A stretch of DNA of 64,000 nucleotides from Elusimicrobia bacterium HGW-Elusimicrobia-3. GTDB lineage: Bacteria; Elusimicrobiota; Elusimicrobia; Elusimicrobiales; UBA9959. The stretch covers positions 39,278 through 103,277 of the forward strand of contig PHAL01000002.1 in assembly GCA_002840355.1 (NCBI GenBank), given 5' to 3'. The notes beneath the pieces are model-generated. The model saw only the letters and a program-made list of their open reading frames with translations. It was not told where the DNA came from and made no database searches. Of this stretch, positions 4,999-54,705 are shown one piece after another (position 1 is the stretch's first letter; every line of letters begins with the position of its first letter). The position numbers were made by a program, and so were the translations under genes.

Positions 4999-7260
4999 AT
5001 GGAAGGGAAACCGGACAAGAAAAAAGAATCAATAGACGAGATACTCTCCGATCTCAACGGCTTGCTCAACAAGATGCCGTCCATCCTGGACGGTATAAAG
5101 ATGCCCGAGATGCAGCCCCTGGAACTTCCGCGCAAGGAAGAGCCCGCCGCCGAACCCGTAAATCCGGAGCCGGAGGCTTTTCATCCGGAGACTGCCGAGG
5201 CCGCCGCGCCCCAGCCCGAGCCTCAGTCCGCCGCCGAACCTGTAACCCCGGAACCTGCCGTTTTTTTCGAGACTGCCCCGGCCGCCGAGGCCGCCGCGCT
5301 ACAGCCTGAGCCGCAGCCCGCTGCCGAGCCTGTGACTCCGGAGCCCGCTGTCGTTCTTCCCGAGACTCCCGCGGCCGAAGAAGCCGCCACACCCCAGAAC
5401 GAGCTGCCTCAGCAGCCGGAGGCGGAGTCCGCCCCCTCTTTCGACGCAGAGAAAACCGTGATGCTTGAGGCTTTCAACGGTCTCGGTGAAGGCGCCCCGG
5501 CGCCCGAGCCGCTGGCCCCGCAGAGCCTGGGAGATTTTATGTACGGTCCCGGTTCCGAAGAGCAGCAGCCCGCGGCCGCCGCGCCCGCCGAACCTGAACC
5601 GCAGGCCGCGCCCGAGTTTCAGGCCGAGCCCGCGGCCCCCGCTGAAAAGGCCGATGAGCCCTCCGCCGGTCTCCAGCCCGTTCCGGCTTTCGAGCCCGAA
5701 GCGCCCGAGTCCGGGATTTCTTTAGAACCTCAGCCCGAGCCCGCGACAGAAGCCGCGCCCGAGGCGCCGCTGCAGGCGGCCGCAGAACCGGAGCGCGTAG
5801 AGCAGGCGGCGCTGCCGGCCTACGACAATACCCGCGATTTCGGCATCCCCGACATCGACGCGCTGCTTCAGCTGTCGGGTGACGGTTCCATAGAGGAAAA
5901 ACCCGGGCAGCAGCTGCCCGAGGCCGGAGTCCTGCCGGAATCGGTGCAGGCCATAGAGCAGGAGAAACCCGCCGTCTCCATACAGGGACTGGACGCGGCC
6001 GCGCAGCAGCCTGAACAGGCGGGGGGGATGATGGACGAGAAAAAAACCGAAGAGAACGACGGACTGCCGCAGGAGCCCGCGCCCGCGGCTGAGCCCAGCC
6101 CCTTTGACGCTTTCGCTATCGATTCCCCGGCCCCGGAGAGCGGGGCGCAGCCCCAGGGCGGTGAGCTTAACCTCGAGCCGTCGGCCGACGCCGGCCTGAA
6201 CCTCGAACCCTCCGCTGAAACGCCCTTGGCGCAGGAGACTGGCGGCCTGAACCTCGAACCTTCCCCGGAAACGCCCCCGGCGCAGGAAGCCGGCGGCCTG
6301 AACCTCGAGCCTTCCGTTGAAACGCCCGCCGCGCAGGAAGCCGGCGGCCTGAACCTCGAACCCTCCGCGGCCATGCCTGCGGGCCAGGACGGCGGGGAAA
6401 CCCTGCGCCTGGAGCCCGCCGGCGAGACTCCCGCGCAGGGCGGCGAAGAACTTAAATTCGAAAGCTCGGCGGAAGCCGCGGCGGCCCCGGCGCAGGATTC
6501 GCCGTTCGGTACCGAGCCCGCGGCCGAAAACGCCGCAGCGGAGCCAGGGCTGGAACTGGGCGGCCAGCCGCCCGCGGCCGGCGGCTTGGAACTTTCTCCT
6601 TCCCTCGACCTCTCCGGCGCGCAGCCGCAGCCGGAGGGCGCCGACCAGACCATCCCCGGCGGCGTCGGCCTGGAGCTCAGCGTGGGCCAGCCCCCGCAGG
6701 AGCCGGCCGCGGCCATGCCCGGCGGCGGCCTGGAACTTGACGGCGGGACCCCCGGCGGCGAAGAGACGCTGGTGGCGCCTGCCCCCGAGGGGGATTCTGA
6801 AGGCGACAGGACCATGGTCTACCAGGCCGCCCCTTCCAATACTTCCCGCGCGCAGGCCGGCGACCTCGAGGAGCTCGCCGCCAAGCAGGCCCCCGAGGGC
6901 ATACCGGCGGAGCGCCTGCGCACGCTGATGTTCCTCTACGGCCCCGACGACAAGGCCCTCTGCGCCACCGCGCTGGCCGAGCTGGACGCCATCTGCCTCA
7001 AATCCCCCACCAAGCCGATGTTCATCAAGCGGGCCTCCGTTAAGGAGTGCGACCCCGACGTGAACCCGAACTACGTCATCCAGACCGTGACCGATGCCGG
7101 CGCGCAGGGCCTGATCTGCCTGGGCAGCGTGCCCCAGGAGAAGGTCTACGAGATCGAGAACGCCTTCGGCACCTCCGGGGGCTTCTTCCGCTACTACGAC
7201 TCCTCCACGTTCAGCCATTCGGCGGCGCTGGACCTGGTGGCCGACCTGATACTTCGCTGA
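4999..7260 (+). CDS. Acidic Pro/Glu/Ala-rich repeat protein with a small globular C-terminal domain
   Basis: 753-aa ORF. It is low complexity apart from about 40 aa at the N-terminus and about 130 aa at the C-terminus. It contains internal tandem repeats and is co-directional and tightly spaced with its neighbours. Confidence 0.7.
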   Translation: MEGKPDKKKESIDEILSDLNGLLNKMPSILDGIKMPEMQPLELPRKEEPAAEPVNPEPEAFHPETAEAAAPQPEPQSAAEPVTPEPAVFFETAPAAEAAALQPEPQPAAEPVTPEPAVVLPETPAAEEAATPQNELPQQPEAESAPSFDAEKTVMLEAFNGLGEGAPAPEPLAPQSLGDFMYGPGSEEQQPAAAAPAEPEPQAAPEFQAEPAAPAEKADEPSAGLQPVPAFEPEAPESGISLEPQPEPATEAAPEAPLQAAAEPERVEQAALPAYDNTRDFGIPDIDALLQLSGDGSIEEKPGQQLPEAGVLPESVQAIEQEKPAVSIQGLDAAAQQPEQAGGMMDEKKTEENDGLPQEPAPAAEPSPFDAFAIDSPAPESGAQPQGGELNLEPSADAGLNLEPSAETPLAQETGGLNLEPSPETPPAQEAGGLNLEPSVETPAAQEAGGLNLEPSAAMPAGQDGGETLRLEPAGETPAQGGEELKFESSAEAAAAPAQDSPFGTEPAAENAAAEPGLELGGQPPAAGGLELSPSLDLSGAQPQPEGADQTIPGGVGLELSVGQPPQEPAAAMPGGGLELDGGTPGGEETLVAPAPEGDSEGDRTMVYQAAPSNTSRAQAGDLEELAAKQAPEGIPAERLRTLMFLYGPDDKALCATALAELDAICLKSPTKPMFIKRASVKECDPDVNPNYVIQTVTDAGAQGLICLGSVPQEKVYEIENAFGTSGGFFRYYDSSTFSHSAALDLVADLILR
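5146..5400 (+). repeat. In-frame tandem repeat, about 3 copies of 84-90 nt (AAEPVxPEPxxxxxETxxAxxAAxxQPEPQx)
   Basis: Units start at 5146, 5230 and 5320. Read directly from the sequence and its translation. Confidence 0.8.
6157..6470 (+). repeat. In-frame tandem repeat, 51-nt period (GGLNLEPSxETPxAQEx), about 4 good copies plus degenerate flanking copies
   Basis: GGCGGCCTGAACCTCGA(A/G)CC recurs at 6241, 6292 and 6343 (the 6190 copy is a variant, GCCGGCCTG...); degenerate units lie on both sides. Confidence 0.85.
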
Positions 7261-19936: not shown

Positions 19937-19954
19937 CCTCCGGCGGATGAAAAA

Positions 19955-19978
19955 GCCCGGGGCAGCCCGGGCTTTTTT
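19955..19978 (+). terminator. Intrinsic terminator after topA
   Basis: AAAAAGCCCGGG-GCAG-CCCGGGCTTTTTT. Confidence 0.75.
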
Positions 19979-27137: not shown

Positions 27138-27143
27138 ATACTA

Positions 27144-27310
27144 ACGATAATAGCAAACCCGGACCTGAAGGCCGGGGGCGCAAAGCCGCGGGGCAAAGGG
27201 ACGAGGGTCCACACGCCGGACGGGCTGCCGAAAGTGAGAGCGTGTATTTTGCCGGCCAGGCTACCGAATGAGGAAGTCCATTAATGGGCTGTTCCTGTTC
27301 GGTTTTTTTT
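27144..27310 (+). promoter_or_regulatory. Structured 5' leader ending in an intrinsic terminator (riboswitch/attenuator candidate)
   Basis: Hairpin CCCGGACC-TGAA-GGCCGGG (27158-76) followed by GGCGCAAAGCC. Nested stems GGCAAA/TTTGCC (27192-97/27248-53) and ACACGC/GCGTGT (27211-16/27240-45). A terminator follows. Confidence 0.5.
27264..27310 (+). terminator. Intrinsic terminator located inside the leader, 20 nt before the start codon
   Basis: CCGAA..AGGAAGTCCA-TTAA-TGGGC..TTCCT.TTCGG hairpin (27264-27302) followed by T8 (27303-27310). Confidence 0.6.
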
Positions 27311-31391: not shown

Positions 31392-32834
31392 TTGTATACT
31401 TTCCCCATGAAAATACTAGTCCTTTCGGCGCTGCTGCTGTCGGCGCCTTGCGCCCACTCGGCCGGCGTGGACGGCGCCATAAAGCGCCTGGCCGCCGCGC
31501 CGGGCGTGGCCAACGCCTCGTGGGGCCTGAGCGTGAAGGACCTGGCCGGCCGGACCGTGGCGCAGCGCAACCCCCGCCTGAACCTGACGCCGGCGAGCAT
31601 ACTCAAGGTCTTCGTCACCGCGGCCGCCCTGGAGAAGTTCGGCCCCGAGAAAACTTTCATGACCGGCCTCTATTACGACGGCAAGATCTCCAACGGCTTC
31701 CTGAACGGCAACCTGTACATTCGCGGCGGCGGGGACCCTTCGCTGGGCTCTCAGCTGATAAAGGCCGCCAGGCCGCTGGAGGAGGTTTTTGCCGACTGGA
31801 CCGCCGCGCTGAAGGCCGCCGGCATCAGGGTAATAAACGGCGCGGTGGCCGGCGACGACAGCGCTTTCGAGAGCGCGCAGCCGGGCTCCTGGGCCTGGGA
31901 GGATATCGGCAACTACTATGCCGCCCAGCCTTCCGCCCTCACGGTCAACGACGGCGCTTACCGCATAGTCTTCAAGCCCTCGGAGCAGGTCGGAGGGGAA
32001 GCCGCGCTGCTGCGCGCCGAGCCGGCCGTAGAAGGCCTGGAATTCGAGAACTATATGCGCACCGGCCCGAAGGGCTCGGGCGACAACGGCTATGTCTACG
32101 CTTTTCCCGGCCAGCGCCGCGCCGTGCTGCGCGGCAGCATACCGCAGGGGCAGCCGGAGTTCGCCATCAAGGCCGCCCTGCCGGACCCCGCCCTGTTCGC
32201 GGCCCAGAGTTTCGGCGCTTACCTGACCCGGGCCGGCATAAACGCCAATAAGAAGCCTTTCGGTGGTTCTCCGGCGAAAGATGCGGATCTTACTCTCGTG
32301 ACGGAGACGGAATCGAGACCGCTCAAGGACGCGGTGCGCGTTACCAATAAGCGCAGTTTCAACCTCTACTCCGAGCTGCTGCTGCGGCACCTGGGCGGCG
32401 GCTCTCCCAGAGAGGGGGCTAACGCGGTTAAAATGTTCCTCGCCGCCGCCGGCGCGGAAGTCTCGGAACTGAAACTGGCCGACGCCTGCGGCCTGTCCTG
32501 GCGCAATATGACCAAGGCGGAGACCTTCACCGACCTGCTCCGCTACGTCCACGGCCGGAAATATTTCCCCGAGTTCTACGATTCGCTGGTCTACCCCGGA
32601 GACCCCGACGCCACCGGCCACGTGCGTAACCTGGGCAAGGGCACGCCGCTGGAACGGAACCTGCGCCTTAAATCGGGCTCCCTCAACGGCGTGCGCTCCT
32701 ATACCGGCTACCTCAAAACGAAAAAGGGGAAGACCCTCGTCTTCACCTCCATCATCAACAACTACTCCATGCCCGGCTCCGCCGCCGACAAGATGCACGA
32801 GGACCTCCTCCTCGCGCTGTACAATGGTTATTAG
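31392..32834 (+). CDS. dacB: D-alanyl-D-alanine carboxypeptidase/endopeptidase (PBP4, S13 family)
   Basis: Signal peptide, SxxK motif in TPASILKV, overall PBP4 layout, and KSGSLNGV (KTG-like) near the C-terminus. Confidence 0.85.
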   Translation: MYTFPMKILVLSALLLSAPCAHSAGVDGAIKRLAAAPGVANASWGLSVKDLAGRTVAQRNPRLNLTPASILKVFVTAAALEKFGPEKTFMTGLYYDGKISNGFLNGNLYIRGGGDPSLGSQLIKAARPLEEVFADWTAALKAAGIRVINGAVAGDDSAFESAQPGSWAWEDIGNYYAAQPSALTVNDGAYRIVFKPSEQVGGEAALLRAEPAVEGLEFENYMRTGPKGSGDNGYVYAFPGQRRAVLRGSIPQGQPEFAIKAALPDPALFAAQSFGAYLTRAGINANKKPFGGSPAKDADLTLVTETESRPLKDAVRVTNKRSFNLYSELLLRHLGGGSPREGANAVKMFLAAAGAEVSELKLADACGLSWRNMTKAETFTDLLRYVHGRKYFPEFYDSLVYPGDPDATGHVRNLGKGTPLERNLRLKSGSLNGVRSYTGYLKTKKGKTLVFTSIINNYSMPGSAADKMHEDLLLALYNGY

Positions 32835-32848
32835 TGCCTGGTTCTGTG

Positions 32849-32980
32849 CCTAAGCCAAGGGGACAGGGTTAGCAAAACCCTGTCGGAGGCCCGAGCTTGC
32901 ATAGCGCGAGGGCCGAGACGGGGAGTGGCGAGCACGGTGTGCGAGACCACGTTTTTGCGTTCCTGGCCCCTTGGATTAGG
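32849..32980 (+). repeat. Structured intergenic repeat, copy A (between convergent dacB and macB)
   Basis: Core 32866-32963 is homologous to the reverse complement of 45262-45355. Outer stem CCTAAGCCAAGGGG (32849-62) pairs with CCCCTTGGATTAGG (32967-80) with one mismatch. Inner stem is GCAAAAC/GTTTT(T)GC. Confidence 0.75.
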
Positions 32981-32988
32981 CGTACGGG

Positions 32989-34947
32989 TTATTCATAGCG
33001 GAGGGCTTCGATGGGGTCCAGCATGGCGGCGCGCATGGCCGGCCAGAAGCCGAAGCCCACGCCGATGAGGGTGGAGAAACCGAAAGCGAAAGATATGGTG
33101 CCGGCGCCCAAGGCCGGTTTGACCTTGGTAAAGAAGAAGGCCGCCCAGCCCAGGCCGAAGCCCAGGCCCACGCCCAGCACCCCGCCTATCAGGCACAGCA
33201 CCACCGCCTCTATCAGGAACTGGCTCAGGATATCGGAATTGCGCGCGCCCAGCGCTTTGCGCAGGCCGATCTCGCGCGTGCGCTCGGTGACGGAAACGAG
33301 CATGATGTTCATGATGCCGATGCCGCCCACCAGGAGCGAGATGCCGGCTATGCCGTAGACCACCAGCGAGAGCTTGCCCATGGTGCTCTTGAACATCTCT
33401 ATCTGCGTCTCGAAGGTGCGCACCTCGAAATCCTCTTCCGCGTCCTCGCGCAGGCCGCGCTCATTGCGCAGCACGCCTATGATCTGGCGCCGCACTTCCT
33501 GGGCGTCGTCGGGCGTGGGGGCGGCGACTTCCACGTAGTCCAGCTTGGTCGCGCCGAACACGCGCTTGCCCGCCGTGCTCAGCGGGATATAGGCCGAGGG
33601 CTGGCCGCCGAAGATGTCCTCGGCCTTGTGGTTCTCGGCCACGCCGACCACGGTAAAGGTGATGCCCTTGATGCGGATCTCGGCGTTCACGGCGTTCTCG
33701 GAGCCGAAGAGTTTCTTGGCCAGCGCCTGGTTGATAACGGCCGTCCTGGCGCGCCCCAGGTTCTCCGCCCTGGTGAAGAAGCGCCCGGTCACCTTGCGGT
33801 TCTCGAAATAGTCGGGCCGCGCGGCCTGCTCGGCCGGGGCGAAACCCTCGCGGCTCTGTACGTTGGCCTCGGTGCGCTTGTCGCCCGCCGATACTTCCAG
33901 GCCGTTGCGCGTCAGCGACGGCGTCACTTTCTCGGCCAGCGGCACGCGCGTACGGATGGCCTCTACCTCGCCCATCGTGAACTTGCGGCGGGGCTTGCCG
34001 TGCTGCCAGCGCGGCGTCACCCACACCTTCTTGGCGTCCTCCTCGCTCGATCCTGAGAGCAGGCTCTTCATGAAGCCCTCGCTGATGGTCATCAGCGAGA
34101 TGATGGCGCCCACGCCTATGAAGATGCCCAGCACCGTCAGGGCGCTGCGCATCTTGTGGCTCCAGATGGCCTTGAAGGCCACCTTGAGCTGCTCGGCGAA
34201 TTCGGAGGGGGAAAAGCTCAGGCGGGCCGGCGGCAGGGCGGCGGCGGCGGCCTTGCCCGGCGCGCGGACGCGGCGCACTTCGTCCGAGACTATGCGGCCG
34301 TCCTTCAGGCGCACGGTGCGGTCGGTCATCGCGGCCACTTCGTCGTCGTGCGTGACGATGATGATGGTCTGGCCCTTCTCGCTCAGGTCCCGGATGACCT
34401 GCATCACTTCCTGGCGGCTGACGGCGTCCAGATTGCCGGTGGGCTCGTCGGCCATGATCACCAGCGGGTCGTTGACGAGCGCGCGGGCTATGGCCACCCG
34501 CTGGCACTGGCCGCCGGAGAGCTCGTTGGATTTGTGCTTTACGCGGTCGGCCAGGCCCACCAGGCGCAGGCAGTCCAGCGCCTTGGCGGCGTCCGAGCCC
34601 AGGCCGGTATAGACCATGGGCAGCATCACGTTGTCGCGCGCCGTGGTGCGCTTTAAAAGGTGGAAAGACTGGAAGATGAAGCCGACCATGCGGCTGCGTA
34701 TGGCCGACAGCCTGCTTTCGGGCAGCCGGGCCGTCGGGTGGCCCGCGAAATAATACTCGCCCTCGTCGGGCCGGTCCAGGAAGCCCATGATGTGCAGCAG
34801 CGTGCTCTTGCCCGAACCAGAAGGTCCGACCAGCGCCACCAGTTCCCCGGCCTGGATGGAGAGCGAGACGGCCTTGAGGGCCTCCACGCGGAAGTCCCCG
34901 GTAGTGTAGGTCTTGGAGACCTCTTTGATCTCTATCAGCGGTCGCAT
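32989..34947 (-). CDS. macB: MacB-type ABC transporter, fused ATPase and permease
   Basis: Walker [10 protein letters not shown], signature LSGGQCQR, Walker B VIMADEPT, then an FtsX-like 4-TM domain with a large periplasmic loop. Confidence 0.9.
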
Positions 34948-37212: not shown

Positions 37213-37245
37213 AAAAAGAAAAGCCCGCGCGGGGCGCGGGCTTTT
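37213..37245 (-). terminator. Intrinsic terminator after nrfA (symmetrical; could act in both directions)
   Basis: On the + strand: AAAAAGAAAA-GCCCGCGC-GGG-GCGCGGGC-TTTT. Confidence 0.65.
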
Positions 37246-37262
37246 CACCGGGCGGCCTGGCC

Positions 37263-43727: not shown

Positions 43728-43731
<4 letters not shown>

Positions 43732-45227
43732 ACGAAACCCCTACCCCTAATTCAGGCATCAACGAAATAGTCGCCAACAACTACGCCAAGATCAAGGCCA
43801 TACGCGAGAAAGGCATAGACCCGTTCCCGCACCGCTTCAAGCCCAGCCACACCATCGCCGAGGCCGCGGCCCTGCAGCCCGAGGCGCAGGTGACCATCGC
43901 CGGCCGCATGATGCTGATGCGCGTGATGGGCAAGGCCACCTTCGCGCACCTCAAGGACGGCACCGGCCGGCTGCAGATCTACGTCAAGCGCGACTCGGTG
44001 GGCGAGGAAGCCTACGAGATCTTCAAGAAGCAGATGCACGTGGGCGACTTCCTCGGCGTGGAAGGCAAGCTCTTCCTGACCAAGACCGGCGAGCTGACCG
44101 TGGACGCCGCCAAGATCACCGTGCTCTCCAAGAGCGTCCGCCCGCTGCCCGAGAAGTTCCACGGCCTGACCGATTCCGAGACCCGCTACCGCGACCGCTA
44201 CCTGGACCTGCTCACCAACGACGACGTGCGCGCCCTGTTCGTGAAACGCTCGCAGATCGTGGCCGCGCTGCGCGAGGTGCTTAACGGCGAGGGCATGCTG
44301 GAGGTGGAGACCCCGGTGCTCTGCTCGCAGGCCGGCGGCGCCTCCGCCCGCCCGTTCATCACTTTCCACAACGCCTACAAGAACGAGCTGTACATGCGCA
44401 TCGCCCTCGAGCTGCCGCTCAAGAAGCTGCTGATCGGCGGTTTCCAGGGCGCCTACGAGATAGGCCGCGTGTTCCGCAACGAGGGCGTGGATACCCGCCA
44501 CAACCCGGAGTTCACCATGGTGGAGGCCTACAAGGCCTACTCCGACTACCACGGCATGGCCGAGCTGGTGGAGAAGCTGTTCGAGCGCTTCATCCAGGTC
44601 ATAGGCTCCGAGACCGTGGACTACAACGGCGTGAAGATCAACCTCAAGCCCCCGTTCAAGCGCCTGAGCCTGCCCGACGAGTGGCTGGCCAAGACCGGCG
44701 AGGATATACACAATATCCTCGACGGCAAACGCTTCAACCGCCCGAACCTGGTGACGCTGGCGAAAAAGCTGCACATCGAGTGCGGCCCCGACACCACCTC
44801 GGCCAAGATCTTCGACCGCATCATGGACGAGAAGATCCTGGCGGACCTGCAGCAGCCGACTTTCGTCTTCGACCACCCGACCGCGATCACCCCGCTGGCC
44901 AAGTGCAAGCCCGGGGACGAGTGCCTGGTGGAGCGCTTCGAGTTCTTCGCGGGCACCGAGGAGATCGCCAACGCCTACACCGAGCTCAACGATCCCGAGG
45001 ACCAGAAGAGCCGCCTGGTGGAGCAGCTCCGCCAGCAGCAGGAGGAGAACAACGGCGAGGCCGACATCCTCGACAAGGATTTCATCGTGGCGATGGAGTA
45101 CGGCATGCCCCCGATGGGCGGCATAGGCATAGGCATAGACCGCGTCACCATGCTGCTGACCGGCAAGCCGTCCATCCGCGAAGTGGTGCTGTTCCCGCTG
45201 CTCCGCCCCGACCAGGCCAACGGCTAA
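43728..45227 (+). CDS. lysS: Lysine--tRNA ligase (class II)
   Basis: OB-fold anticodon-binding N-domain and class II motifs (YMRIALELPLKKL, FRNEG, GGIGIGIDRV). Confidence 0.95.
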
Positions 45228-45249: not shown

Positions 45250-45367
45250 TCTGCCGGGGCCGGAACGCAAAACGCGCTCGCGCACACCGTGCGCTCGCTC
45301 ATCAATCGGGCTCGGCGCTACGCAAGCCTCGCCCTCATGAAGGTTTTGCTAACCCGACCCCGGCAGA
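45250..45367 (-). repeat. Structured intergenic repeat, copy B (inverted relative to copy A; between lysS and lolC/E)
   Basis: Core 45262-45355 is the reverse complement of a homolog of 32866-32963. Shared blocks are GGGTTAGCAAAACC, GCTTGC(A/G)TAGCGC, CACGGTGTGCG and GTTTTGCGTTCC. The outer stem here is TCTGCCGGGG (45250-59) with CCCCGGCAGA (45358-67). Confidence 0.75.
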
Positions 45368-45386: not shown

Positions 45387-46616
45387 ATGTCCACCGAATT
45401 CTTTATAGCGCGACGGTATCTGCTCGCCAAGAGGAAGGGCCTCTTCGCGATGATCACCACCTTTATCGGCGTGGCCGGCGTCGCCCTCGGCGTGGCCGCG
45501 CTGATAGTCACGCTGGCCATCATGGACGGCTTCCAGACCGACATCAAGGGCAAGATCATAGACGCGCAGGCGCATATCACCATCTACGGCCGCATGCAGC
45601 CCCGCGACCTCGAGACCGTGCGCGCCGTGCTCGAGCGCGACGGTCGCCTGGCCGCCGAGTCGCCCTTCGTGCTCGGCCAGGGCATCCTCACTTTCGACGG
45701 CCGCTCCGTGGGGGCCGTGGTGAAGGGCTTCGAACCCGCCGCCGAGGCCGGCGTGAACAACCTCTCCAAGTCGCTCGTGCGCGGCTCCTGGGCCGAACTC
45801 TCCAACCCCGCCCCCGGCGCCCCGCCGGCCCTGGTGCTGGGCGAGGAGCTGGCCAAGAGCCTGGGCGCCTGGCCCGGCGACGAGATAGTGCTGGTGTCCC
45901 CGCAGGGCGCCGCCACCGCCGGGGCCGGCCTGCTGCCCAAGATGAAGAAGTTCCGCGTCGTGGGCCTGGTGCGCACCGGCTATTTCGAATTCGACAATAC
46001 CATGGCCTATTGCTCGCGCGCCGCGGCCGGGAACTTTTTCGGTTTTCCCGGCGGGGCCAACGGCGTGGGCGTGCGCTTGAAGGACATCGACGACGCCCCC
46101 GCGGCGGCCGCCGGCCTGCGCAAGACGCTGGGTTTCGCTTTCAACATCAAGACCTACGCCGACATGAACCAGACCCTCTTCGCCGCGCTGAAGCTGGAGA
46201 AGTTCGTGATGTCGCTGGTGCTGGCCCTGATCATCCTGGTCGCCACGTTCAACATCGCCTCCAATTTGCTCATGATGAGCGTCGAGAAACTGCGCGACAT
46301 CGGCATCCTGCGCGCCATGGGCGCCGGGCCCGCCTTCATCCGCCGCGTCTTCTTCTGGGAGGGCAACCTGATCGCCCTGACCGGCATCACCATCGGCGTG
46401 CTGCTGGGCGTCGGCATCTCCGTCTTCCTCGCCGTCTACCCCGTGCTGGAGCTGCCCTCGGACATCTACTACATCACCAAGGTCCCGGTGGACCTCAAGC
46501 TTTCCAACATCCTGGCCACCGCCGCCGTCAGCTACCTCTTGTGCATGCTCAGCGCCGTCTACCCCGCCTTGAGGGCCTCCCGGGTCAGTCCCGTGGACGC
46601 GATACGCTATGGATAA
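45387..46616 (+). CDS. Lipoprotein-release permease LolC/LolE family
   Basis: MacB/FtsX-type 4-TM layout with a periplasmic domain. Start FIARRYL and ending PVDAIRYG. lolD follows. Confidence 0.85.
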   Translation: MSTEFFIARRYLLAKRKGLFAMITTFIGVAGVALGVAALIVTLAIMDGFQTDIKGKIIDAQAHITIYGRMQPRDLETVRAVLERDGRLAAESPFVLGQGILTFDGRSVGAVVKGFEPAAEAGVNNLSKSLVRGSWAELSNPAPGAPPALVLGEELAKSLGAWPGDEIVLVSPQGAATAGAGLLPKMKKFRVVGLVRTGYFEFDNTMAYCSRAAAGNFFGFPGGANGVGVRLKDIDDAPAAAAGLRKTLGFAFNIKTYADMNQTLFAALKLEKFVMSLVLALIILVATFNIASNLLMMSVEKLRDIGILRAMGAGPAFIRRVFFWEGNLIALTGITIGVLLGVGISVFLAVYPVLELPSDIYYITKVPVDLKLSNILATAAVSYLLCMLSAVYPALRASRVSPVDAIRYG

Positions 46617-54620: not shown

Positions 54621-54705
54621 GTGGACGCCGTATATCGGCCTCCACCTGTGAACTCCCCGAAACAAGGGAGAGCGATAACCCCCCAAAAGGGGGTTATCGC
54701 TTTTT
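54621..54705 (+). ncRNA. Candidate ~85-nt sRNA (promoter, two hairpins, strong terminator); alternatively a 3' UTR or terminator of the upstream operon
   Basis: Hairpin GTGGACGCCG/CGGCCTCCAC (54621-45), hairpin CTCCC/GGGAG (54654-70), and the terminator 54672-54705. Confidence 0.4.
54672..54705 (+). terminator. Strong intrinsic terminator
   Basis: GCGATAACCCCC (54672-83) pairs with GGGGGTTATCGC (54689-54700), followed by TTTTT. Confidence 0.8.

Follow-up and report, generated by a model that had tools for sequence, protein, structure and literature searches.

What is the structured sequence that fills the gap between two convergent genes, dacB and macB, in a genome of the Elusimicrobiales? 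The question arises from a 64,000-nucleotide stretch of Elusimicrobia bacterium HGW-Elusimicrobia-3 (contig PHAL01000002.1, positions 39,278 to 103,277; hereafter the window), in which a hairpin-forming element occurs twice, at 32849-32980 on the plus strand (copy A) and at 45250-45367 on the minus strand (copy B). The analysis described here identifies both copies as members of a large family of interspersed repeats with a conserved, strand-specific fold and with outer stems that are gained and lost together with the core. The explanation that we favour, and to which we give about half of our confidence, is that these hairpins are a "long palindromic unit" of the REP/ERIC kind, turning over as a whole and recognised through the fold of its plus strand.

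Two copies of one element

Copies A and B are one and the same element. The initial annotation had described them as homologous inverted copies sharing blocks of core sequence, and its coordinates, blocks and folds were all reproduced. The sequence GGGTTAGCAAAACC occurs exactly twice in the window (32866-32879, plus strand, and 45342-45355, minus strand), against 0.16 chance matches expected, and GCACGGTGTGCG is present unchanged in both copies (at 32932, plus strand, and 45281, minus strand). A further block reads GTTTTGCGTTCC in copy B and, with one extra T, TTTTTGCGTTCC in copy A. Each of the common blocks is expected by chance more rarely than it is observed, and pairwise alignment recovers them. 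When the window was searched with a covariance model of the family, filters off, these were the only two copies, scoring 137 bits (A) and 108 bits (B); the third-best real-strand match reaches 17 bits.

The two copies are predicted to fold alike: an outer stem leads to the pairing of GCAAAAC with GTTTT(T)GC and then to two inner hairpins. In each, a 92-99-nt core forms a three-way junction atop a 12-20-bp outer stem. Predicted folding energies are -72.9 kcal/mol for copy A and -68.8 kcal/mol for copy B (z = -6.8 and -5.3 against shuffled sequences). In copy A, the 5′ arm (CCTAAGCCAAGGGGACA, 32849-32865) pairs with the 3′ arm (TGGCCCCTTGGATTAGG, 32964-32980); the outer stem CCTAAGCCAAGGGG/CCCCTTGGATTAGG has one G.A mismatch and extends to 17 bp. 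The conserved 98-nt core between the arms (32866-32963), supported by the 137-bit match and by covariation, contains a GG and the internal loop GUUA/GUU, P3 (GCAAAAC at 32872-32878 with UUUUGC at 32953-32958), the P4 hairpin (32878-32923, with the conserved apical loop UUGCAUAGC at 32897-32905) and the P5 hairpin (32925-32950, with GCACGGUGUGC at 32932-32942 and tandem G.A pairs), all on the plus strand. Copy B, on the minus strand, represents another subfamily with shorter lower stems in P4 and P5. Its conserved 94-nt core (45262-45355) is enclosed by a 5′ arm at 45356-45367 (TCTGCCGGGGTC on the minus strand) and a 3′ arm at 45250-45261 (GGCCCCGGCAGA on the minus strand); the outer stem TCTGCCGGGG/CCCCGGCAGA is perfect and extends to 12 bp.

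An alternative local pairing was noticed in copy A, where GACAGGGTT and AACCCTGTC (32862-32884) could form a 9-bp hairpin around AGCAA in competition with the three-way-junction fold. The underlying GGTT/AACC pairing is possible in nearly all copies of the family.

A repeat family specific to the Elusimicrobiales

A pattern scan with two core blocks, covering one genome per species, yielded more than 113 further loci among the matches listed. These are distributed over 32 assemblies, all of them metagenome-assembled genomes (MAGs) of Elusimicrobia/Elusimicrobiales. The scan was combined with a covariance model (R1), built from 110 extracted copies and a hand-drawn structure, and together they identified 157 elements in 121 loci (1.4 Mb of related DNA; loci are designated below by L numbers). 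The chance that only the two window copies exist, which the initial annotation had counted against its own proposal, is removed by these figures. Uncultivated Elusimicrobiales carry tens of copies per genome, and every one of the 118 extracted copies has a different sequence. The invariance of the two search blocks is partly a matter of ascertainment, as model R1 also finds variants such as GGATAAGAAAAAC and GGCCACGGTGTGGCC. Two pattern scans of viral contigs returned no copy.

No Rfam 15 family matches positions 32780-33050 at E <= 10, and none reaches its gathering score on 15 related loci. The sole match at gathering score in the window is a c-di-GMP-I riboswitch, away from both copies. Neither the core sequence nor any account of repeats in Elusimicrobia was found in the literature searched. 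We conclude that the family is a previously undescribed interspersed structured repeat, specific to the Elusimicrobiales. To our knowledge, this clade has no cultured representatives and almost no non-coding elements have been described in the phylum, to which the present family adds a structured nucleic-acid element that is abundant and has very good support (44 covarying pairs, see below). The units could serve as lineage markers of the Elusimicrobiales.

The fold is conserved and strand-specific

A typical unit is 130-170 nt long. Its 92-99-nt core, a three-way junction with conserved loops, lies between a 5′ arm and the 3′ arm that is complementary to it. In the model-based alignment, 92.3% of the cells at paired positions are paired, as compared to 70.3% in shuffles and to about 43% when the 3′ partners are slid. 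Compensatory change is pervasive: 44 of the 49 base pairs have changed on both sides, and none of 500 shuffles scores as high. A lack of such changes in an alignment of many copies had been named at the outset as an argument against a functional fold; the alignment shows the opposite. Other positions are conserved and apparently unpaired, namely the internal loop GUUA/GUU, a 9-10-nt apical loop UUGCRUA(A)GC and a GGU triloop on GCAC/GUGC. Tandem G.A mismatches recur in P4, in P5 and in the arms.

Some units are longer. At least eight copies have a 20-30-nt mini-hairpin inserted 3′ of P5, and a few measure 200-260 nt and contain several such modules. The module consists of GTGG, then AGCGAAGCGA or CCGAAACGG, then CAC, and is followed by TTTCTTG or CGCAGTG. 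It was seen in L037, L038, L043, L044, L061, L064, L067, L098, L117 and L118, with three modules in L117.

The two strands of the unit are not equivalent. In 112 of 117 copies the plus strand folds more stably than the minus strand (p = 6e-20); the mean minimum free energies are -82.4 kcal/mol (plus) and -72.5 kcal/mol (minus), a difference of 9.9 kcal/mol. On the plus strand G.U pairs outnumber A.C/C.A combinations by 160 to 59 (2.7 to 1; two conserved wobble positions excluded), and one particular G.U pair is kept by 104 of the 135 aligned rows. Since a symmetric duplex or a cruciform would give neither the G.U bias nor the greater stability of the plus strand, the fold is strand-specific and the molecule that functions is single-stranded, whether RNA or DNA. 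The same asymmetry bears on the notion that the unit acts as double-stranded DNA, as a cruciform or as the binding site of a dimeric protein involved in chromosome organisation. Such a role would agree with the REP-like distribution of the copies and with the apical motifs, which are near-palindromic as duplex DNA (GCTTRCGYAAGC, GCAC-GGT-GTGC), but a strong strand asymmetry of pairing would not be selected in a symmetric duplex or cruciform, and we regard this explanation as highly improbable.

Several structural resemblances were considered and set aside. A pseudoknot between the apical loop UUGC and GCAA gains no support from the alignment, because loop variants with UUAC are not accompanied by matching changes in GCAA. 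Likenesses to the hammerhead, the C/D-box and domain V of group II introns (UGAUGA, AGC), made out by eye, are not conserved across subfamilies. The unit is no integron attC site either: GCAAAAC/GTTTTGC and GTTAGCA do not fit RYYYAAC...GTTRRRY, the centre is conserved rather than variable, and the copies are dispersed.

The outer stems belong to the element

The initial annotation considered the outer stems of copies A and B to be unrelated in sequence, with pairing maintained. Compared with each other, the two stems do look unrelated and both pair; across the family, however, the arms share a degenerate consensus. This consensus is polar, with a G-run always in the 5′ arm and a C-run in the 3′ arm, followed by GAC opposite GGC. 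It keeps a constant distance to the core, and 45 of 129 copies have the GAC/GGC motif with an A.G mismatch. Arm families, such as GGAGACCGCAGGGG.../...CCCCTGCGGTAGGCC and GGNNGGACGNGGGGACC, are common to non-orthologous copies; in the non-orthologous L067 and L108, from one genome, the arms match at 17/17 and 15/17 positions. About 20 copies begin sharply with a 5′ GGAGGG head and end with a conserved unpaired 3′ tail, CCGACTGGGCATCTCGCGG, giving this head/tail subfamily sharp boundaries. Target-site duplications (TSDs), by which the initial annotation would have recognised a MITE (a miniature transposable element with inverted repeats), did not turn up: direct repeats are found neither at the boundaries of the head/tail subfamily nor in comparisons of filled with empty dacB/macB sites. 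Where an orthologous site is empty (L114, L119, L124, L125, L129, L092 and L104/L093), both arms are missing.

These observations can be set against the idea that the core moves by itself and, in the manner of IS1397 in REPs, lands in the loops of hairpins already present at each locus, which would make the outer stems target DNA. The idea would explain why L023, L058 and L083 have identical cores and unrelated arms within one genome, why several orthologous loci keep the distal arm while the core subfamily differs, and why the distal 8 nt of the 3′ arm of L037 lie inside the flank that it has in common with L079. Yet none of 142 perfect hairpins of at least 9 bp in the window and in L001-L113 resembles an empty outer stem, the simple hairpins among them being ordinary A-run/T-run terminators; empty orthologous sites retain neither arm; the family consensus of the arms is polar and does not vary in its distance from the core; and no target duplication marks the core boundary. 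Insertion of the core alone thus seems very doubtful. The outer stems belong to the element and are gained and lost together with the core. Of the two readings initially offered, a functional hairpin or a small mobile element with locus-specific flanks, what stands is a structured repeat family; its arms are not the locus-specific flanks of a shorter mobile core.

The suggestion, from L037 and L079, of an arm taken over from flanking sequence found no confirmation at the dacB/macB site. Derivation of the arms from the immediate flank, as an inverted target duplication, was rejected, the arms being unrelated to the flanks at filled and empty dacB/macB sites.

The resulting architecture inverts the usual layout of bacterial repeats, in that the apex is conserved and the termini vary so long as they remain paired. 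Such a layout points to a folded single strand, rather than the sequence of the termini, as what is recognised.

Whole units turn over at orthologous sites

The dacB protein was used as query to fetch 65 orthologous loci. In related genomes the dacB/macB junction contains at least three unrelated units, or none. The unit of the window is found in L118, L121 and L050 with an identical 5′ arm, a 3′ arm that has drifted (to TGGCCACTTGGATTAGG and TGTTCCCTTGGCTTAGG) and a core that is 99-100% identical, in flanking DNA that is only about 79% identical. Copy A is therefore not devoid of conservation in relatives, a circumstance that would have spoken against the initial proposal. Different long units lie at the junction in L117 and L122, and a putative insertion sequence (IS) occupies it in L115 and L116. 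In L114, L119, L124, L125 and L129 the junction is empty: the stop codons lie 0-25 nt apart and no remnant of an arm is present. As the closest dacB relative, L114 (88% at the amino acid level), is among the empty ones while more distant relatives share the window unit, units must be lost as well as gained.

Turnover is not confined to this junction. The site of copy B is occupied in four other genomes by other core subfamilies with other arms, in both orientations. Four further loci, one of them the pheS/pheT junction, keep the distal arm and have a core subfamily that is specific to the genome and sometimes flipped. L037 and L079, with flanks 95% identical, carry entirely different units in opposite orientation. 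Flips of the unit were found at five orthologous loci. The units are thus hot spots of intergenic turnover and inversion, and as such can confuse metagenome assembly.

Core pairs with at least 97% identity are nine times more frequent within genomes than between them (8.3% versus 0.9%). Arms are the least conserved part of the unit, some 50-59% identical even between copies whose cores are at least 97% identical; for the core pairs just counted the figure is only 59%. The within-genome similarity of the cores indicates that either gene conversion has homogenised them or the family has expanded in lineage-specific bursts, after which the arms diverged fast. Between orthologous arms, 21 compensatory double changes and 14 single changes to wobble pairs were counted, versus 22 changes that break a pair. 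With cores homogenised within genomes and orthologous arms changing in a compensatory manner, the family offers a natural system for the study of concerted evolution.

A few loci show irregular arrangements. The insertion directly downstream of dacB in L115 and L116 (about 5440-5720) starts an open reading frame (ORF) that we take to resemble OrfA of IS3-family transposases (MSVNNNRRNWTIQQKLEIVEARLKGL). In L120 (2422-2560) the core is missing: the 5′ arm of the dacB/macB unit leads into a diverged second copy of the final 29 nt of dacB and spacer, and this into the 3′ arm. Either the assembly is chimeric across the inverted arms or the rearrangement is real. Positions 63-565 of L091 (MAG NC_groundwater_1704) match window positions 32319-32821 and then continue from 40929 onward, joining the end of dacB to the 40.9-kb region, so that the approximately 8-kb macB segment is absent from this place or has moved. 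Finally, L002 (about 940-1000) and L031 (about 1290-1330) contain a partial tandem duplication beside a full unit, made up of an arm and the initial 12 nt of the core (or the final core block).

Position relative to genes and to neighbouring units

All copies are intergenic, usually 20-50 nt from a stop codon. Their orientation relative to genes is random: among 98 copies, 27 are sense and 35 antisense between co-directional genes, 22 lie between convergent and 14 between divergent genes. This position would suit an RNA element acting in cis in 3′ untranslated regions (3′-UTRs), which the host would keep downstream of genes to terminate transcription in both directions and/or to block 3′ exonucleases. 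Copies placed shortly past stop codons and rarest between divergent genes would be expected of it. Copy A is the sole structure in the 154-nt gap between the convergent dacB and macB genes. The hairpin is very stable in both orientations, with P5 followed by GUUUU(U)G in the plus sense and the complement of P4 followed by GUUUUG in the minus sense; a terminator scan flags 45285-45272 (minus strand) inside copy B, and the T-runs are conserved in more than 90% of copies. The likeness to an intrinsic (bidirectional) terminator, with A-tract, hairpin(s) and T-tract (GCAAAAC...GUUUUGC) after stop codons, has its limits: the U-runs are short, the outer stem is an extra and long one, and there are two inner hairpins with conserved loops; a terminator would need neither such loops nor a three-way junction. 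Moreover, many copies adjoin a canonical terminator (A-run, hairpin, T-run), which makes them redundant in that capacity, and related genomes manage with 0-25 nt and no structure at the dacB/macB junction. Strand-specific selection also misfits a role that is independent of orientation. As the primary function of the unit, a 3′-end signal appears unlikely.

Neighbouring units are arranged in a regular manner. All 23 pairs lying within 1.3 kb are inverted, with their 5′ ends facing each other, and 17 of them lie within 100 nt; tandem pairs were never seen. The two members of a head-to-head pair usually belong to different subfamilies, or consist of a unit and a member of a sister family. This arrangement is what divergent transcription from a common, often A+T-rich spacer would give, and it brings up the possibility that the copies are a multi-copy family of independently transcribed, structured non-coding RNAs (ncRNAs), with a long terminal stem, a protein-binding core and, in some, a single-stranded 3′ tail, turnover being secondary. 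Selection on one strand (the G.U bias, the conserved G.U pair, the tandem G.A pairs and the roughly 10 kcal/mol advantage of the plus strand) would follow from such a function, as would the compensatory evolution of orthologous arms through G.U intermediates and the persistence of a 99% identical core at a site with 79% identical flanks. The 5′ flank is also more A+T-rich than the 3′ flank (0.57 versus 0.47), and a terminator follows the head/tail subfamily and the long variant in L076. On the other hand, no promoter motif occurs at a fixed distance from the 5′ end, the left flanks have no motif in common, and no sigma-70-like site lies beside either window copy. Several of the spacers between paired units leave no room for a promoter (13-23 nt) or are too GC-rich for one, most copies lack a terminator directly past the 3′ arm, and it would be unusual for genes of trans-acting RNAs to number in the tens per genome and to be gained, lost and replaced at hot spots. 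We consider it somewhat unlikely that the units are primarily ncRNA genes.

The sister family is often the left partner of a head-to-head pair; it was seen in L076 (minus strand, about 2330-2470), L001 (5650-5900), L014, L066 and L103, and as the left partner in L028, L030, L044 and L099. In one form it has the two conserved loops of the main family (GCTTGCGTAAGC and CACGGTGTG) on a different scaffold. In the other, only the GGAGGGG head and the CCCCGACTGGGCATCTCGCGG tail are in common and the core is different. This suggests a common chassis with exchangeable apical modules.

A proposed mobile repeat recognised by its fold

Returning to the REP/ERIC-like repeat favoured at the outset, the scheme that we propose is as follows. 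Whole units, with their arms, multiply, disappear, are replaced and are inverted in intergenic DNA; on account of this, the family behaves as a non-autonomous mobile or recombining element. What is preserved is the fold of one strand and the core sequence, rather than the termini. The turnover, like the family, its fold and its strand specificity, is shown by the data above; the mobilising enzyme and the effect at the RNA level are inferred. A protein acting in trans would recognise the folded plus strand, as single-stranded DNA or as RNA; our best guess is a single-strand enzyme of the HUH/RAYT type. Arms would diverge by compensatory change because they need only pair, and cores may be kept uniform within a genome through gene conversion or recent spread. 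On transcription in either direction, a unit would give a very stable hairpin in which a U-run comes after an inner hairpin, and it would probably also provide a 3′-end structure to neighbouring genes.

A number of results weigh against this scheme. Compensatory change in the arms, together with a copy A core that is 99% identical within 79% identical flanks, suggests selection at the level of the locus and hence a function for the host, beyond selfish spread alone. Orientation is unrelated to local GC skew (the element strand is positive in 68 copies and negative in 74), contrary to lagging-strand insertion in the manner of IS200/IS605. When all ORFs of at least 120 amino acids in 113 loci were clustered, no protein family was found to recur beside the copies; the clusters represent common families only, the largest being PAS/GAF sensor proteins. 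A tblastn search of 1.4 Mb gave no RAYT-like ORF, in what is a weak test with an E. coli RAYT sequence as query. No long version with an ORF-sized span between the 5′ and 3′ ends of the core was found in 0.9 Mb, and no identical whole units were seen at different loci, which leaves no sign of very recent transposition. The ncRNA-gene and 3′-UTR explanations are kept alive by the conservation at individual loci and by the compensatory changes; they are compatible with a mobile repeat and do not exclude it.

A more far-reaching variant, which we think quite unlikely, holds that the units encode a new class of structured RNA or are its mobile copies. The core would then recruit a dedicated protein, specificity would lie in the rapidly changing stem and, for one subfamily, in the conserved 3′ tail, and the folded single strand would be the means of spread, either by way of an RNA intermediate (a SINE-like retroelement of bacteria) or with the help of a novel enzyme of single-stranded DNA. 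Should it prove correct, inverted pairs with inward 5′ ends could bracket and move small foreign genes, and three low-GC ORFs bracketed in this way are present in one MAG. Identification of a partner protein or of a discrete RNA could make of the family a new RNA-protein system or a new single-strand transposition system.

The bracketed ORFs just mentioned are those of MAG SKS1.bin123, in L067 (5752-6340), L108 (6826-7546) and L110 (1694-2211). They encode three unrelated products of 136-196 amino acids, apparently membrane proteins, at 38-40% GC compared to about 60% for the genome, each between two inverted units with 5′ ends inward. ORFs lying between the wider inverted pairs show no kinship to one another.

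Relation to known repeats

ERIC (or IRU) sequences of Enterobacteria and Vibrio are imperfect palindromes of about 127 bp, intergenic, found in both orientations, strongly conserved across species and thought to act as RNA hairpins; longer variants arise by insertions at fixed internal sites, and the whole sequence is conserved, ends included. The mini-hairpin module 3′ of P5 is reminiscent of these insertions. The resemblance is architectural only: the ends of the present family are variable, the phylum is a different one, and we know of no sequence similarity between the two.

With MITEs such as Correia/NEMIS, RUP and Nezha, the family shares small size, lack of coding capacity, tens of copies per genome, intergenic location, presence/absence polymorphism and folding into a hairpin. 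MITEs, however, have conserved terminal inverted repeats (TIRs), TSDs and a recognisable IS origin, whereas here the termini are variable, no duplication was seen and no parent IS was found in 0.9 Mb. Absence of TIRs and TSDs, and a strand-specific hairpin with G.T pairs, bring to mind the palindrome-associated elements of the IS200/IS605 group and their HUH enzymes, all the more as one subfamily has a conserved single-stranded tail directly 3′ of the hairpin that resembles a nic region. Unlike in IS200/IS605, no TnpA or TnpB was found, no conserved target tetranucleotide is present at the left end, and GC skew shows no relation to orientation.

The closest described kind is that of the REPs. 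Like REPs, BIMEs and REPINs, the present repeats are extragenic, GC-rich palindromes in high copy number that lie mostly after genes, between co-directional or convergent ones. Tagged REPs are small palindromes of 20-40 bp with a stem of 6-13 bp and a loop of 2-27 nt (Di Nocera et al. 2013, PMC3733652). Those tagged with GTAG/CGTC occur mostly after genes, have G.T pairs in the stem and fall into subfamilies with complementary stem changes; their dimers are inverted, not tandem (PMC3733652). All these traits recur here: the 23 neighbour pairs are inverted without exception as are REP dimers (PMC3733652), stems contain G.T pairs and differ between subfamilies by complementary changes, and complex loops do exist in some REP families. 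Size and architecture are nevertheless those of something else. At 130-170 nt the unit is far outside the range of REPs, its "loop" is a 92-99-nt three-way junction and the most conserved part, and its stems of 12-20 bp are the least conserved. As a lead only, we mention that GACG (CGTC when read from the opposite strand) or GGTAG recurs in the arms at a set distance from the core: the GTAG/CGTC of REPs is an unpaired terminal tag, whereas the motif in the arms lies in the stem, is mostly paired and is missing from many copies, both window copies included. A RAYT gene was not found beside the family either (the weak tblastn search of 1.4 Mb, see above). Because the size and architecture of REPs are not matched, nor the termini, target duplications and parent IS of MITEs, the family belongs to no named family; the tagged REP superfamilies (PMC3733652) are the nearest relatives in kind.

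Neighbourhood of the two window copies

The statement of the initial annotation that copy A fills the gap between convergent dacB and macB genes proved accurate, and Pfam supports the identity of both neighbours. The dacB-like gene (31392-32834, plus strand; Peptidase_S13) has its stop codon 14 nt before copy A, and the macB-like ABC transporter gene (32989-34947, minus strand; ABC_tran, MacB_PCD and FtsX) has its stop codon 8 nt after it. Copy B lies antisense between two plus-strand genes, one for a protein resembling class II lysyl-tRNA synthetase (LysRS) upstream (43728-45227) and one for a lolC/E-like permease downstream (45387-46616).

Canonical bidirectional terminators, with A-run, GC hairpin and T-run, are present elsewhere in the window at 19950-19977, 37218-37246 and 54671-54701, and the organism hence uses ordinary intrinsic terminators. 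The c-di-GMP-I riboswitch aptamer recognised by Rfam lies at 27142-27232 on the plus strand and scores 50.9 bits against a gathering score of 35.

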